From sequence record PQ850614.1: 64,000 bases of DNA, one strand, 5' to 3'. Positions 49,189 to 58,963 of the stretch are shown piece by piece (positions within the stretch are counted from its first letter, which is position 1; each line of letters starts with the position of its first letter). The notes under the pieces are model-generated. The model saw only the letters and a program-made list of their open reading frames with translations. It was not told the DNA's origin and did no database searches. This DNA comes from Escherichia phage LorandFenyves_Bas91. The translations under genes and the position numbers were made by a program.

Positions 49189-49392
49189 TTAGTAGAACGA
49201 ACGAATTTCATCCCACACTTGTTCCTGTTCTTTCCTATAAAAAGAAAGTTGGGTCTTGAACATCTCCACTGATGATTCAAAGTTTTTGGTTTGTGCAGCT
49301 TCAACGAAACGTTCATGTCGGTTGATTTTGCACCGTAGCATTAAATACTTGGCTTCAAGTCTCCGAAGAGCCTGCCTTTTCTCAAGATTCAC
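49189..49392 (-). CDS. hypothetical protein
   Basis: 67 aa helical ORF. Confidence 0.4.
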   Translation of the reverse strand: MNLEKRQALRRLEAKYLMLRCKINRHERFVEAAQTKNFESSVEMFKTQLSFYRKEQEQVWDEIRSFY

Positions 49393-49801
49393 TTTTCAGA
49401 TACTCTGACCAGTCGCCAGATTCAACCAGAACATCTTGTTCTTCGTCGATATGATAAATCCAAGCGATAACAGTTTCACCTGAGTCCATCTTAACAGCAA
49501 TCTGAGTACGCTGATAGAAGCTATCTTCAGGGCTACGTTTGTTGTAACCTTCCAGACGGTCATACGGACCTTCCAGACCTGCTTTGTCAGTAGCAAACAC
49601 TTCTACACGAACAGGATTATTGTTATTGCTGTGTGCGAGAGAGATGCTCGGGAAGTAGGAACCACCGTAACGGAACAGATCAAAGTTGTCTTCAGTCCAA
49701 CCTTCACCAATTGACTTAGCACCAGCTCGGTCATTAACTAAATAGTTAGCTTGACCACGACGAAGAGAACCATAAGTTGCTACGTAAATTACTTCTGACA
49801 T
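49382..49801 (-). CDS. gamma-glutamyl cyclotransferase-like (AIG2/GGCT fold) protein
   Basis: N-terminal VATYGSLRRGQANYLVN matches the YGSL/YGTL...G..N motif of the GGCT/AIG2 family. Confidence 0.6.
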   Translation of the reverse strand: MSEVIYVATYGSLRRGQANYLVNDRAGAKSIGEGWTEDNFDLFRYGGSYFPSISLAHSNNNNPVRVEVFATDKAGLEGPYDRLEGYNKRSPEDSFYQRTQIAVKMDSGETVIAWIYHIDEEQDVLVESGDWSEYLKSES

Positions 49802-49802
49802 T

Positions 49803-50012
49803 TTAAATACCTTTCCAGTCTTTCATGATGTTTTCAATGTAAGCACACTGCTGATCAGTGGCTCCTGTTACAAACACTTCTAACCCCAACTGCTCACAGA
49901 AGGGATTAAGAATCAATATTCTGGTTTGCCCATACGAGTGATGCTCTCGGTAGATAACACACCCAGCATCCCATACAGAATCAATGGCTTTACTCAATCT
50001 TTCATGTTTCAT
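49803..50012 (-). CDS. hypothetical protein
   Basis: 69 aa ORF coupled to the upstream gene. Confidence 0.4.
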   Translation of the reverse strand: MKHERLSKAIDSVWDAGCVIYREHHSYGQTRILILNPFCEQLGLEVFVTGATDQQCAYIENIMKDWKGI

Positions 50013-50065
50013 AAAACCTCCAGTTTATCCGAACTAGCCTCCTCTTTCGAAGAGGCTAAAGCAGA

Positions 50066-50251
50066 TTACTCTGTAATAAAGATTTTGATTACACCGCAGA
50101 TTGCTGCACTTTCAAATACTGCAACAGCTTCACTTCCCTGAAAGAAGGCCACTTTGCCATCAGAGAAGTTAAACATGTCAGCATCTAGGTCCATAGCTCG
50201 CATATCACCAGCGTCGTTAGTATCTTTAAACAGAACTTTATACTTATTCAC
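50066..50251 (-). CDS. hypothetical protein
   Basis: 61 aa ORF. Confidence 0.35.
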   Translation of the reverse strand: MNKYKVLFKDTNDAGDMRAMDLDADMFNFSDGKVAFFQGSEAVAVFESAAICGVIKIFITE

Positions 50252-55976: not shown

Positions 55977-55985
55977 GATAACCTC

Positions 55986-56792
55986 TTATGCTACCTGAAG
56001 GAGTTTGATCTGCTGGTCAGCTTCTTTAACGTTGTTCCCGTTAATGATTTCATGAAGCTTCTCAATCGGAAGGCGAGAGTGCAATGCCATCAGAGTGGAC
56101 ATATCACACTGCTGAACAACCTTGTCAACCTGATCGTAAACAAACTTACGGTTTTCACGATCACTAATCCAGAAGTTAGACAGAGAACGGTATTCAATAC
56201 CATAGTCTTTATAACGGATTGCAGATGCTTTACCGTAGAGTTCTTTACGGCGAGTATCTTTGTCCATAATTACTGCTGGGAGAGACAGGAAGTAGTCACA
56301 CAGCACACCCAGCATCATCTGAGTTTGCAGAGTGATATCCAAAGCACCAACTACGCCAAGATGTACGTGACCACCGGCAGTACGAAGTCCCTTATTCTGA
56401 GAAGTCGGGGATGGGTTTTTCTGACCAGTGAAGGCGTTGAAATCAGGAGTGCACCCGAAGATGAACGCTGATTCATTAAAGGTCTTCATCTCTTCTTCAG
56501 TGAAGATGTGAGAGCTAACACCCGGAGCTGTTTCCATGTCCAGTTTGTTCAGGACATTATTGGTGAGATCAATACCACGTTGCATGTTATCGTTAAACGC
56601 TTCAAAACCGCTCTGTGGGTCAATATCAAACTCAGCCAGTACGTTGTCCTCTTGGAGACGAACATCCTTAGCCAGAGCGATCTTATCGTCCTTAGAGCAG
56701 CCTAATAAACCGGCTACAGAAGTGATGATACCATTGCTAGTACGAACAAACATTTCAGGGTCAGAGCCGATAAGGAATTTGCGCTTAGTCAT
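55986..56792 (-). CDS. second glutamine-synthetase-like amidoligase paralogue
   Basis: LIGSDPEMF, LAEFDIDP and RTAGGHVHLGV show the same E-rich early motifs and HVH motif. Confidence 0.45.
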   Translation of the reverse strand: MTKRKFLIGSDPEMFVRTSNGIITSVAGLLGCSKDDKIALAKDVRLQEDNVLAEFDIDPQSGFEAFNDNMQRGIDLTNNVLNKLDMETAPGVSSHIFTEEEMKTFNESAFIFGCTPDFNAFTGQKNPSPTSQNKGLRTAGGHVHLGVVGALDITLQTQMMLGVLCDYFLSLPAVIMDKDTRRKELYGKASAIRYKDYGIEYRSLSNFWISDRENRKFVYDQVDKVVQQCDMSTLMALHSRLPIEKLHEIINGNNVKEADQQIKLLQVA

Positions 56793-57756
56793 TATAATAC
56801 TCCACTAGTTCAGAAAAGAGAGATGAGATTGTGTTACCAACTTCTTCAAGAGTAAGACCGGAATCTGCTCCAGTTCTTTGAATCAGTCGGGCTGTAAAGT
56901 TTTGTACTGTAATGTTTCCCAACTTGTCGTCTATTGCTTCACGTTTGTGACCATAACAGTTGGACCAGAGTCTTAACCACTCTGACATTGTTTCATACTC
57001 GTCCGGGTCTTGATCTTTAGCACGAGCAAATCTTCGTAAGGCATCTTGGTTATGGTTACGAACATAACCATTCTCGTTGTCGCCAACACCGAAGGGGTTT
57101 TGAACCCATACTTGCTTCGTGTATTCATCAGAGTCTACAACCAAAGGAAGGAATGCTGCTGCTGACATATTGTTGTTAATAACAATAGAGGTGCTCTCGC
57201 TACTCCCATTGGCTCTTCCTCGTTGAGACCATCCACCGAAGAAGTCACGACCCAACCCAGCTAACACTAGAGCGATGCCGATGCGTTTACGCTTCAGCCA
57301 CTCTTCCCTGTCTTCAATTCCTTCTGCTAGGAAATCCATTCCACGATATTGCCCTTCCAGAATACTACGAAAGAGCATAAGTCCTGTGAAGATCTGATCT
57401 GCTGGATGCTCACGAAGGTTGACAGCAACACTATTCGCTGAAGTGATCGTAAATACGTCACGATAGCAAGACATGGAGTTCATAATGTCTGCTGTTTCAA
57501 CCAAGTTCTTTTCAATATCAGATGCAACATGACCGTGAAAAGAGTGAGTCCAGTAATTCAACATCTCCAGTTGCAAGTTGATATCACGGTTGAAGCGACG
57601 ATAACGCCCTTCTTCCGAGATAACTTCACCATTAATGTCATTTACACACTGGCCTTGCATGTAGTTGTGGATACCGAAGCACCCACGACCTAAGAACTTC
57701 TGTTCCCCTAAATCCTGTTGAAGATTAAGAGGTACGATCGTTGTGGAGATTGACAT
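56785..57756 (-). CDS. hypothetical protein in the amidoligase cluster
   Basis: 323 aa, overlaps the upstream gene by 8 nt. Confidence 0.45.
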   Translation of the reverse strand: MSISTTIVPLNLQQDLGEQKFLGRGCFGIHNYMQGQCVNDINGEVISEEGRYRRFNRDINLQLEMLNYWTHSFHGHVASDIEKNLVETADIMNSMSCYRDVFTITSANSVAVNLREHPADQIFTGLMLFRSILEGQYRGMDFLAEGIEDREEWLKRKRIGIALVLAGLGRDFFGGWSQRGRANGSSESTSIVINNNMSAAAFLPLVVDSDEYTKQVWVQNPFGVGDNENGYVRNHNQDALRRFARAKDQDPDEYETMSEWLRLWSNCYGHKREAIDDKLGNITVQNFTARLIQRTGADSGLTLEEVGNTISSLFSELVEYYND

Positions 57757-57766
57757 AACTAACCTT

Positions 57767-58963
57767 TTATTTTCCTAAAAATAATCCGCTCATAATACCA
57801 TCCCACTCAGAGGACGGAATCACTGAATACTCCGAACTTTGGTCCAGAGTTCCGCTACTGAATCGCTGAACAATATTATAAATATTGAACATATCTTTAG
57901 TCTCAGCGCGATAAGCGTAGACTAATCTGTCAGCTGTTCTTTCATCTTTAGATACCCGACGAGCAAAGGTAACCAGAAGGTTGTCACCTTTGAGTATTTC
58001 TGACTCATCTTTTACTAGATCAGGGTGCATAACCGGCAAGAACATTGAGTTGTTCACTCGTAACTCTGCTGTTTCATCATTCTCATAATGAATCCATTTA
58101 AAATCTTCATCACGAAAGTGACCGCATCCATCTCTGTATGACTGTTGACGCCAAGGCACTTGAAATGCTTCAGCGTATTTATCAGCCATGCCAACCGTAA
58201 ATAGTGACGCTGGGAAAATACAAGCATCCCAATCGTTACCAACCAGAGTTGCTTTCTTTTCGCTCAAGAGGTTAGTGTAAGTGCTAACCATTCGTGAGTA
58301 AACATAAGCCTGAAGGATTGTCCAGCCTTCAACCAACCATTTATGGAGGAAGGTTTCAACTTGACTCTCTTCATCTTCACAATAGAAGGTTCGGTCTAAC
58401 ATCAAATAGAACAGACAACGATCAGCAGGGATATTCTCAGTTGCTACCCCCATAAAACCTTTATCGTGCCAGCGTAAACAGGAGGGACGATCTTTGTCCA
58501 CAAATGCTTCCATAGCTTCCAGTACAGCACGAGGTGTGGTTCGGTGTTCAGGGTTTTTGTCGTTCCAACGTTCGATGTTATTTTTAGGAGGTGTGTCTTC
58601 ATCTTCATATGAACACCAACTCAAAGCTTCAGCTACGTGCTTTTCATCACGCCAACGTCTAAAGCCTAACATCTTCATATGAGTTCCAGAGTTCCAGATA
58701 TGCTTAATACTGCTCATATCCATCTCTCGACTTAATAAGAACTCTTCCCCATCAGCACTACGAACGTTAGCATCTTCATGCCACACTCGAACGTGCATGT
58801 TCCATCCATGAGTTGCCTCATACATGTTAGGGTCGAAGTAGTCATCATCTTCGTCGTCTTCATCAACGCCACCATTATAGTTGCGAAGCTGAAGGAACCC
58901 ATAACAAGGAGGGTTGACCGTTAAAACATTACCTTCAGTATCTTCTAATGTTACTGGAAACAT
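57767..58963 (-). CDS. hypothetical protein in the amidoligase cluster
   Basis: 398 aa, acidic N-terminal stretch, several Cys and His residues. Confidence 0.45.
   Translation of the reverse strand: MFPVTLEDTEGNVLTVNPPCYGFLQLRNYNGGVDEDDEDDDYFDPNMYEATHGWNMHVRVWHEDANVRSADGEEFLLSREMDMSSIKHIWNSGTHMKMLGFRRWRDEKHVAEALSWCSYEDEDTPPKNNIERWNDKNPEHRTTPRAVLEAMEAFVDKDRPSCLRWHDKGFMGVATENIPADRCLFYLMLDRTFYCEDEESQVETFLHKWLVEGWTILQAYVYSRMVSTYTNLLSEKKATLVGNDWDACIFPASLFTVGMADKYAEAFQVPWRQQSYRDGCGHFRDEDFKWIHYENDETAELRVNNSMFLPVMHPDLVKDESEILKGDNLLVTFARRVSKDERTADRLVYAYRAETKDMFNIYNIVQRFSSGTLDQSSEYSVIPSSEWDGIMSGLFLGK

Follow-up and report, generated by a model that had tools for sequence, protein, structure and literature searches.

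What is made by a block of phage genes that encodes several enzymes of amide-bond formation and cleavage? This question is raised by positions 49382-58963 of a 64,000-nucleotide stretch of Escherichia phage LorandFenyves_Bas91 (accession no. PQ850614.1); the whole stretch is referred to below as the window. A preliminary description of the locus had proposed that seven to ten of its genes form a pathway for peptide tagging or for the synthesis of a novel metabolite. All of the open reading frames (ORFs) named there are present, and every gene of the block lies on the minus strand (Table 1). Searches with Pfam, NCBIfam and PHROGs profiles agreed with the predicted enzymes and confirmed their folds: (i) a protein resembling gamma-glutamylcyclotransferase (GGCT), (ii) an ATP-grasp ligase, (iii) a class-II glutamine amidotransferase (GATase) and (iv) two amidoligases. 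The block is the previously described and routinely annotated phiEco32-type cassette, with three ligases for amide bonds and two enzymes that cleave glutamyl bonds, and its detection here is the rediscovery of a published prediction, not of a new system. The present analysis adds (i) a fifth core member, the gp85-like protein, (ii) the alternation of GGCT with a C26-type hydrolase, (iii) the restriction of the cassette to phages and (iv) the misfit of its cleaving enzymes with intact peptidoglycan.

The same gene set has been called a "peptidoglycan modification cassette" in papers crediting Iyer et al. (Mol Biosyst, 2009) and Hardies et al. (J Virol, 2013) (PMC10580990, PMC5498523, PMC11945000). 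These papers place it in phiEco32, 7-11, LUZ24, PaP3, tf, RIO-1, CW02 and other phages, and propose for it the purpose of blocking superinfection or of preparing the cell wall for lysis. As relayed there, the cassette of Iyer et al. and Hardies et al. matches the signature of amidoligase systems predicted by comparative genomics that had been recognised at this locus. The title of the Pfam family PF14395 is "Phage phiEco32-like COOH.NH2 ligase-type 2". The locus shares with the phiEco32-type cassette its genes (97-99% nucleotide identity with phiEco32 and SU10), its domain set and its position upstream of the primase-helicase gene, and nothing differs in the cassette itself. In the literature we found no biochemical or genetic test of the cassette.

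A five-gene core almost confined to phages

The gene neighbourhood was surveyed in a census in which all ORFs within approximately 10 kb of the gene for the COOH-NH2 ligase (gp86 in phiEco32) were clustered for 89 loci, with lineages (37 in all) defined at <60% ligase identity. The ligase is accompanied by the amidotransferase in 36 of the 37 lineages, by Amidoligase_2 in 35 and by the ATP-grasp protein in 33, and the genes keep the order ligase / gp85-like / Amidoligase_2 / GATase / ATP-grasp; the Amidoligase_2 gene adjoins the amidotransferase gene in nearly all lineages. Because the genes recur as a block in 33-36 of 37 divergent lineages, their clustering is far beyond chance.

Carriers of the cassette were found among the Gordonclarkvirinae, Grimontviridae, Bruynoghevirus, Zobellviridae and phiM6-like phages, and in the crAss-like Cellulophaga phage phi14:2; in each group the cassette adjoins primase or replication genes. 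The set encoded here on the same strand near the ligase gene (Amidoligase_2, class-II GATase, ATP-grasp and GGCT) is also present in LUZ24, SE131, Vp_R1, phi14:2, phiM6, K4, CVT22 and WD615. The enlarged homologues of some phages (the 750-aa ATP-grasp protein of Vp_R1 and the amidoligases of SE131 and phi14:2, of 567 and 515 aa, respectively) contain no extra Pfam domains, and none were found in the upstream ORFs of K4, CVT22 and WD615 save Peptidase_C26.

The ligase was detected by tblastn in 306 phage records, and a scan of IMG/VR yielded 444 relatives. These phages and the IMG/VR contigs, at least 444 in number, span therapy coliphages, LUZ24-like Pseudomonas phages, marine Zobellviridae and a crAss-like phage, and place the cassette among the most widespread phage-only enzyme blocks without known chemistry. 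Among 100,044 bacterial and archaeal species (one genome each), the ligase was encoded at only 13 loci, all in metagenome-assembled genomes or on tiny contigs, and those long enough to be judged carry the cassette together with phage replication genes. The ligase family is effectively restricted to phages. A published occurrence in archaeal viruses (PMC11706807) is based on metagenomic host prediction only and was not used.

The gp85-like proteins form three sequence clusters, which were joined by profile-profile comparison at 98-99.5% probability. Since these clusters jointly span 28 of the 37 lineages, always following the COOH-NH2 ligase, gp85 counts as a fifth member of the core. A structure model of only moderate confidence predicts a non-catalytic, SH3/Tudor-like double beta-barrel. 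Conservation is highest in residues 84-126, which include an invariant basic loop P-x-R-x-x-K/R-x-G-L and for which flexibility or disorder is predicted, on account of which the protein may serve as an adaptor, scaffold or substrate rather than as an enzyme.

The preliminary description had found no recognisable motifs in gp85, gp87 and gp88, and our searches bear this out: none of the three matches a Pfam or NCBIfam family, and their profiles retrieved nothing at E < 0.2 from the PDB sequences. The larger pathway of seven to ten genes stands only in part. The five-gene core and GGCT are retained, while gp79, a transcription factor, and gp87 and gp88, specific to the Gordonclarkvirinae, are not. 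The gp79 homologue (phmmer against phiEco32 gp79, E = 9e-54) lies between the ATP-grasp and GGCT genes; other lineages have the cassette without it. The gp79 protein of phiEco32 binds RNA polymerase and acts as an inhibitor of the sigma-70 holoenzyme and an activator of the phage sigma factor gp36 (PMC8948821). As a characterised inhibitor of this holoenzyme, gp79 is embedded in the block but stands outside the pathway.

An HMMER profile search of 1.84 billion proteins recovered only 23 representatives of the gp87 family, none of them informative, and hhalign gave a weak signal (26-46%) between gp87 and the Grimontviridae gene at the same position. For gp88 a confident structure model was obtained, with no match among solved structures; a Foldseek search of viral models revealed a weak but significant likeness to uncharacterised proteins of approximately 300 aa from Grimontviridae and Aeromonas phages. 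Proteus phage 3H10_20 has a 304-aa gene product, of a length matching these relatives, encoded two places upstream of the ligase. By hhalign (67-87%), gp88 joins a paralogous pair of Grimontviridae proteins, encoded just upstream of the ligase, and an upstream Zobellviridae protein in a loose family. No trace of gp87 or gp88 was detected in LUZ24-like phages. Both are Gordonclarkvirinae-specific additions whose membership of the pathway is unproven.

Enzymes of the cassette and the proposed gamma-glutamyl handle

Both amidoligases are related to glutamine synthetase (GS). The COOH-NH2 ligase, of the GCS2/GS fold, matches PF14395 (E = 2.3e-8; 34 bits, cut-off 25) and retains the motifs DPE, GCxPDxN, RTAGGHVH and YGxEYRxLSN, whereas gp84 is a GS-fold carboxylate-amine ligase of the Amidoligase_2 family (PF12224, E = 4.5e-8; phrog_7469, E = 1e-158). 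The third ligase matches phrog_2599 (E = 1e-189), its Pfam and NCBIfam matches being below the curated cut-offs: rimK_fam (E = 1e-7; 31.6 bits, cut-off 143), MptN (E = 5e-8) and the RimK equivalog (25 bits, cut-off 331). Its best PDB matches are alpha-L-glutamate ligases and RimK, and its sequence shows the ExN motif "LEVNTAPG" and an acidic linker, with roughly 80 aa at the C-terminus making up an additional domain. Judged from these matches, the fold assignment (RimK/Ddl-type) holds, but membership of the RimK family, like specificity, is not established. The metal- and ATP-binding motifs are kept in both GS-fold ligases and in the ATP-grasp protein. Signal peptides or membrane segments were not evident in any of the cassette sequences.

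The amidotransferase (gp83) is of the class-II, N-terminal nucleophile (Ntn) type. Its GATase_6 domain (E = 1e-14) occupies about residues 1-240 and is followed by a low-complexity linker, a middle region and, in the C-terminal third, the three Cys4 zinc ribbons noted previously, which are visible in the translation (CxxC at residues 440, 487, 512 and 641, with partner cysteines). Neither a fused synthase or acceptor domain nor any Pfam domain was detected past residue ~240. A C-terminal ribbon is present in 20 of 36 lineages. The gene starts with ATT (54177-54179), followed by the codon TGT for the catalytic Cys, exactly as in phiEco32; owing to this ATT start, the program-made list of ORFs shows only a shorter ORF beginning with TTG. 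A Cys at position 2 is also found in the homologues of LUZ24, SE131, Vp_R1, phiM6, WD615 and K4. The segments HSRHAT, VHNG and EVDSE align with HTRWAT, VHNG and ETDTE of the GlmS glutaminase domain (1xff), and the equivalents of GlmS R73 (glutamine-binding Arg), N98-G99 (Asn-Gly oxyanion hole) and D123 (alpha-amine-binding Asp) are kept. By this alignment, the glutaminase site is intact.

The apparent starts of the amidotransferase homologues of other lineages are ATG, GTG, TTG or ATC. Two short hairpins can be recognised by eye within the 79-nt gap that precedes the gene (54180-54258), just ahead of a GGTGG Shine-Dalgarno sequence, and may exert translational control of the amidotransferase.

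The GGCT-like protein matches Pfam GGACT (E = 3.4e-17; 63.6 bits, cut-off 22.8) and phrog_2520 (E = 1.6e-44). Its YGSLRRG motif aligns with the AIG2 structures 1v30 and 1vkb, and the Glu of "DRLEGY" is the putative catalytic residue.

The census revealed that GGCT (14 of 37 lineages) alternates with a Pfam-confirmed Peptidase_C26 protein of the gamma-glutamyl hydrolase type (22 of 37). Twelve lineages have GGCT only, 20 have C26 only, two have both and three have neither (Fisher p = 1.8e-5, a value that overstates the association, the lineages not being independent). The two genes occupy different positions, C26 upstream of the ligase and GGCT downstream of the ATP-grasp gene. We read this near-exclusivity as a required step, the removal of a gamma-glutamyl group from an amine, that is supplied by non-orthologous displacement.

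Pairs of this kind are known from other pathways. In the butirosin (BtrJ, ATP-grasp; BtrG, GGCT-like), putrescine (PuuA, GS-like; PuuD, C26) and ergothioneine pathways (EgtA, resembling gamma-glutamylcysteine synthetase (GCS); EgtC, class-II GATase-like), an ATP-dependent gamma-glutamyl ligase, either of the GS/GCS or of the ATP-grasp type, is paired, as proposed here, with a later remover of the gamma-glutamyl group (cyclotransferase, C26 hydrolase or Ntn amidohydrolase). The phage cassette differs in having three ligases and no carrier of the acyl carrier protein type, and no orthology is detectable. GS-fold ligases use ammonia or amines as nucleophiles, and enzymes of the RimK family add L-glutamate. 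Both the cyclisation catalysed by GGCT and the binding by the Arg and Asp of class-II GATases need a gamma-glutamyl group with a free alpha-amino and a free alpha-carboxyl group.

By analogy with these pathways, we tentatively prefer a reading that we hold to be nearly as likely to be right as wrong: the cassette would be a phage-restricted, cytoplasmic system that uses a gamma-glutamyl handle to build an amide-linked product. Its core would consist of the GCS2-like COOH-NH2 ligase, its gp85-like partner, Amidoligase_2, the Ntn amidotransferase and the RimK-like ATP-grasp enzyme, accompanied by a remover of the gamma-glutamyl group (GGCT here, the C26 hydrolase in other lineages), and would be expressed with the replication genes. 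In such a pathway, (i) the three ligases would use ATP to turn carboxylates into acyl-phosphates, activated for the formation of amide bonds, (ii) at least one of these bonds would join a gamma-glutamyl group to an amine, (iii) the amidotransferase would hydrolyse glutamine and pass ammonia to the adjacent Amidoligase_2 for the conversion of a carboxylate into a carboxamide or, alternatively, would cleave a gamma-glutamyl amide as EgtC does, and (iv) GGCT would take off the N-terminally free gamma-glutamyl group as 5-oxoproline, freeing the finished amine. The gamma-glutamyl group would be a transient handle, and the product a small amide-rich metabolite or conjugate.

Several points weigh against this handle pathway. 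Three lineages, including Moazamivirus and Privateervirus, have neither GGCT nor C26 within 10 kb, and the exclusivity of the two may have arisen from one or a few ancient swaps, the lineages being phylogenetically non-independent. Both GS-fold ligases and the ATP-grasp protein are too divergent for a transfer of specificity, with NCBIfam scores far below the cut-offs. Macromolecules, more than small molecules, are the usual substrates of enzymes with zinc ribbons, SH3-like barrels and long acidic linkers. Finally, no substrate, product or phenotype, of a knockout or otherwise, was found in the literature for any member of the cassette, in keeping with the lack of biochemical characterisation in phages remarked on in the preliminary description. 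Identification of the product would probably reveal a new manipulation of the host or a new phage metabolite, and would settle a 17-year-old prediction; members of Kuravirus grow on E. coli K-12 (Bas86-93 of the BASEL collection), which makes genetics feasible.

Alternative roles of the cassette

The role named in the literature is the remodelling of peptidoglycan: residues of the stem peptide, or of its precursors in the cytoplasm, would be added or amidated by the ligases together with the amidotransferase and trimmed by the cleaving enzymes, either to block superinfection or to prepare lysis. We consider this unlikely. Stem peptides do contain a gamma-glutamyl bond and free carboxylates, and peptidoglycan is present in all identified hosts of cassette phages. 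The chemistry is also known, since MurT-GatD and AsnB/LtsA carry out the glutamine-dependent amidation of D-isoglutamate (D-iGlu) or meso-diaminopimelate. In these systems, as in the cassette, a glutaminase stands next to an ATP-dependent, carboxylate-activating ligase, and the class-II Ntn residues are kept in the phage amidotransferase; in contrast to them, the partner ligase of the phage has a GS fold and is neither a Mur ligase nor AsnB, and zinc ribbons replace the synthase domain. This role is the one given in the papers that draw on Iyer et al. and Hardies et al. (PMC10580990, PMC11945000, PMC5498523). Against it, all cassette proteins look cytoplasmic from their sequences, and the signature ligase is without cellular homologues in the 100,044 species genomes, which would be odd for wall-building enzymes. 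In the stem peptides, D-iGlu is N-acylated by L-Ala. The D-configuration and the acylated amine of this residue conflict, on enzymological grounds, with the need of GGCT and class-II GATases for a free alpha-amine, and it is for this reason that the handle pathway is favoured over direct editing of peptidoglycan.

A further candidate role, which we judge rather improbable, is the modification of proteins or peptides. Here a protein of the host or of the phage would be tagged by the ligases with glutamate or some other amino acid (cf. RimK-S6, PafA-Pup and LysX-LysW) and the tags edited by the cleaving enzymes, with the gp85-like protein serving, by way of its invariant basic loop, as an adaptor, a carrier or a substrate. 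The relatedness of the ATP-grasp protein, which is closest to protein and peptide glutamate ligases of the RimK family, is in favour of such a role, as are the zinc ribbons of the amidotransferase, which suggest contacts with macromolecules, and the gp85-like protein itself, a non-enzymatic barrel (in a model of moderate confidence only, which counts against this role) with a flexible conserved segment bearing invariant Arg and Gly and conserved Lys/Arg, whose gene always adjoins that of the ligase in the 28 lineages that have it. However, no small protein with a conserved C-terminal Glu/Gln tail is present, and the free zinc-ribbon proteins found in 14 of the 37 lineages have variable C-termini and show no complementarity between fused and free ribbons. 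Enzymes of the GGACT type, moreover, act on free gamma-glutamyl-amines and not on intact proteins.

In these free proteins (57-84 aa), a zinc ribbon at the N-terminus (MRCxxCxRxLxDxEST...CxxC) precedes a variable, strongly acidic C-terminal tail. They are encoded between the ATP-grasp and primase genes, directly upstream of the latter (IMG/VR loci L036, L038, L047, L049, L051 and others), have no counterpart in the window, and may belong to the replication module rather than to the cassette. Two ideas concerning them were rejected: that they substitute for the ribbons fused to the amidotransferase, for which no complementarity was found (counts 13, 9, 7 and 7), and that they form a LysW/LysX-like carrier system, given their variable C-termini, this same lack of complementarity and their absence from the window.

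The cassette might also equip a base or nucleotide with an amide-linked side chain, accounting for the resistance of the Gordonclarkvirinae to restriction-modification (RM) systems, a doubtful proposition to which we give little credence. According to the BASEL study, these phages are remarkably RM-resistant and have no known modification pathway. The window keeps 12 EcoRI, 38 EcoRV, 31 HindIII, 9 EcoKI and 107 EcoP1 sites, so that loss of sites does not explain the resistance, and site avoidance was rejected as its cause for these five enzymes. In addition, DNA of EcM-vB1, a 97%-identical Kuravirus, was reported to be uncut by HindIII and BfaI (PMC11699686), but this report is methodologically weak, and DNA of the LUZ24-like phage U17, which has the same cassette, was digested by 11 out of 16 restriction enzymes, HindIII among them (PMC11945000). 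The position beside primase or replication genes in every lineage would suit an action on DNA, but this link is largely inherited within one podovirus supergroup. In viromes, Pfam matches to amidoligase and GATase co-occur with thymidine-hypermodification genes (PMC8989533).

A precedent is provided by CmoY, a phage ATP-dependent amide ligase that acts on a carboxyl handle in DNA. With CmoA and CmoX it forms the 5-carboxymethylcytosine-glycine system of Synechococcus phage S-B43, which serves restriction evasion, and some homologues bear a class-II glutaminase domain, a likeness to the cassette (PMC12783734). Unlike the phage ligases described here, CmoY is AsnB-like and AMP-forming, neither GS nor ATP-grasp, and relies on CmoA and CmoX. 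Homologues of a carboxy-S-adenosylmethionine synthase and a C5-methyltransferase are absent from the scanned ORFs of the window, which did not include every small ORF, and from the phiEco32 annotation. More generally, the Pfam results and the phiEco32 annotation contain no enzyme that would install a handle (hydroxymethylase, 5-hydroxymethyluracil DNA kinase (5-HMUDK), aGPT-Pplase, C5-methyltransferase/CmoA or DpdA). The ORFs of the cluster and of nucleotide metabolism gave no Pfam matches to dUMP hydroxymethylase, 5-hmdU DNA kinase or aGPT-Pplase, none of which appears in the phiEco32 annotation. The window encodes a dCTP deaminase, and its thymidylate synthase is an ordinary ThyX (Thy1). The more specific proposal, that a gamma-glutamyl-protected amine or amide side chain, placed with the help of gp87 and gp88 on the DNA or nucleotide pool of the Gordonclarkvirinae, is the missing modification behind their RM resistance, is more improbable still.

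That the block is no functional unit, its genes being mere neighbours in a gene-dense genome, is scarcely credible in spite of the gp79 regulator and the several small ORFs that interrupt it and of the failure of gp87 and gp88 to be conserved with the rest, since the four enzymes and the gp85-like protein recur in the same order in 28-36 of the 37 lineages, from the Gordonclarkvirinae to the crAss-like phage, and for the five-gene core this explanation is effectively refuted by the co-occurrence census.

Gene layout and neighbouring features

The counterpart of the block in phiEco32 is gp77-gp88, located directly upstream of the primase/helicase gene gp75. The nucleotide identity of the region is 98.7% with Escherichia phage vB_EcoP-CHD5UKE1, 98.3% with SU10 and 97% with phiEco32 (aligned in two pieces, 98% coverage), on the strength of which the source phage is placed, by sequence, as a Kuravirus (Gordonclarkvirinae) coliphage. 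The genes are joined by overlaps of 4-20 nt or separated by gaps of 1-10 nt, the gap of 79 nt before the amidotransferase being the exception. The features are summarised in Table 1.

Table 1. Genes and other features at the amidoligase locus (positions in the window)
Feature	Position	Strand	Evidence or remark
GGACT/AIG2-type gamma-glutamyl(amine) cyclotransferase, gp77 homologue	49382-49801	minus	Pfam GGACT
Small ORF, 69 aa, without phiEco32 counterpart	49803-50012	minus	ORF list
gp78 homologue, 61 aa	50066-50251	minus	ORF list and phiEco32 comparison
gp79 homologue, RNA-polymerase-binding regulator	50248-50496	minus	phmmer
ATP-grasp ligase, RimK-like	50503-51705	minus	phrog_2599, NCBIfam and PDB matches
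gp81 homologue, 74 aa	51708-51932	minus	ORF list and phiEco32 comparison
DUF7195 small protein, 77 aa	51913-52146	minus	Pfam
Class-II (Ntn) glutamine amidotransferase with zinc ribbons (gp83)	52149-54179	minus	Pfam GATase_6
Amidoligase_2 (gp84)	54259-55362	minus	Pfam PF12224
gp85-like beta-barrel protein (predicted)	55359-55976	minus	Fifth core member
COOH-NH2 ligase type 2 (gp86)	55986-56792	minus	Pfam PF14395
gp87, 323 aa	56785-57756	minus	No Pfam, NCBIfam or PDB match
gp88, 398 aa	57767-58963	minus	Confident structure model without solved-structure neighbour
gp89 homologue, 120 aa	58975-59337	minus	First gene past the terminator-like hairpin
Terminator-like hairpin, then T-run on the coding strand	59519-59536	minus	Consensus scan only

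The DUF7195 protein (Pfam, E = 4.7e-17) is kept beside the amidotransferase in phages with prolate (C3-type) heads, with homologues at the same position in SE131 and Vp_R1. The 69-aa ORF has a homologue in Salmonella phage SE131 (E = 1e-24), a sequence similarity that points to the exchange of small genes between the Gordonclarkvirinae and Grimontviridae; it is probably outside the pathway. The terminator-like hairpin may lie at the upstream end of the transcription unit. No promoter for the phage sigma factor (TAATGTATA) was found within the block.

Some features of the window and of related loci touch on DNA and nucleotides. In phage phi14:2 (locus L005), the gene of a uracil-DNA glycosylase-superfamily protein (14285-14995; Pfam, E = 3.5e-12) overlaps the stop codon of the cassette amidoligase gene; this protein is the only DNA-base-directed enzyme found in an operon with the cassette. 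Over the whole window, CCWGG (Dcm/EcoRII) occurs 8 times against approximately 150 expected and GATC is depleted about two-fold; PstI, SacI, BamHI and NcoI sites are absent, whereas those of EcoRI, EcoRV, HindIII, EcoKI and EcoP1 are at or above the expected numbers. A 472-aa protein encoded on the minus strand (45458-46876), with the dCTP deaminase on one side and the exonuclease subunit of the DNA polymerase on the other, has a phiEco32 counterpart annotated as "nucleotidyltransferase" and a weak match to the PolyA_pol head domain (E = 0.002). The authors of the BASEL study suggested that the "nucleotidyltransferase"/dCTP deaminase pair might underlie DNA modification. A Macro-domain protein (31797-32318) and a YspA/SLOG-family protein (30741-31133), both encoded on the minus strand near the phage sigma factor, are candidates for counter-defence, because both domain types bind or process nucleotide derivatives. 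The early region also contains, on the minus strand, a gene for tRNA-Arg (anticodon TCT; 63450-63525), as does that of phiEco32.

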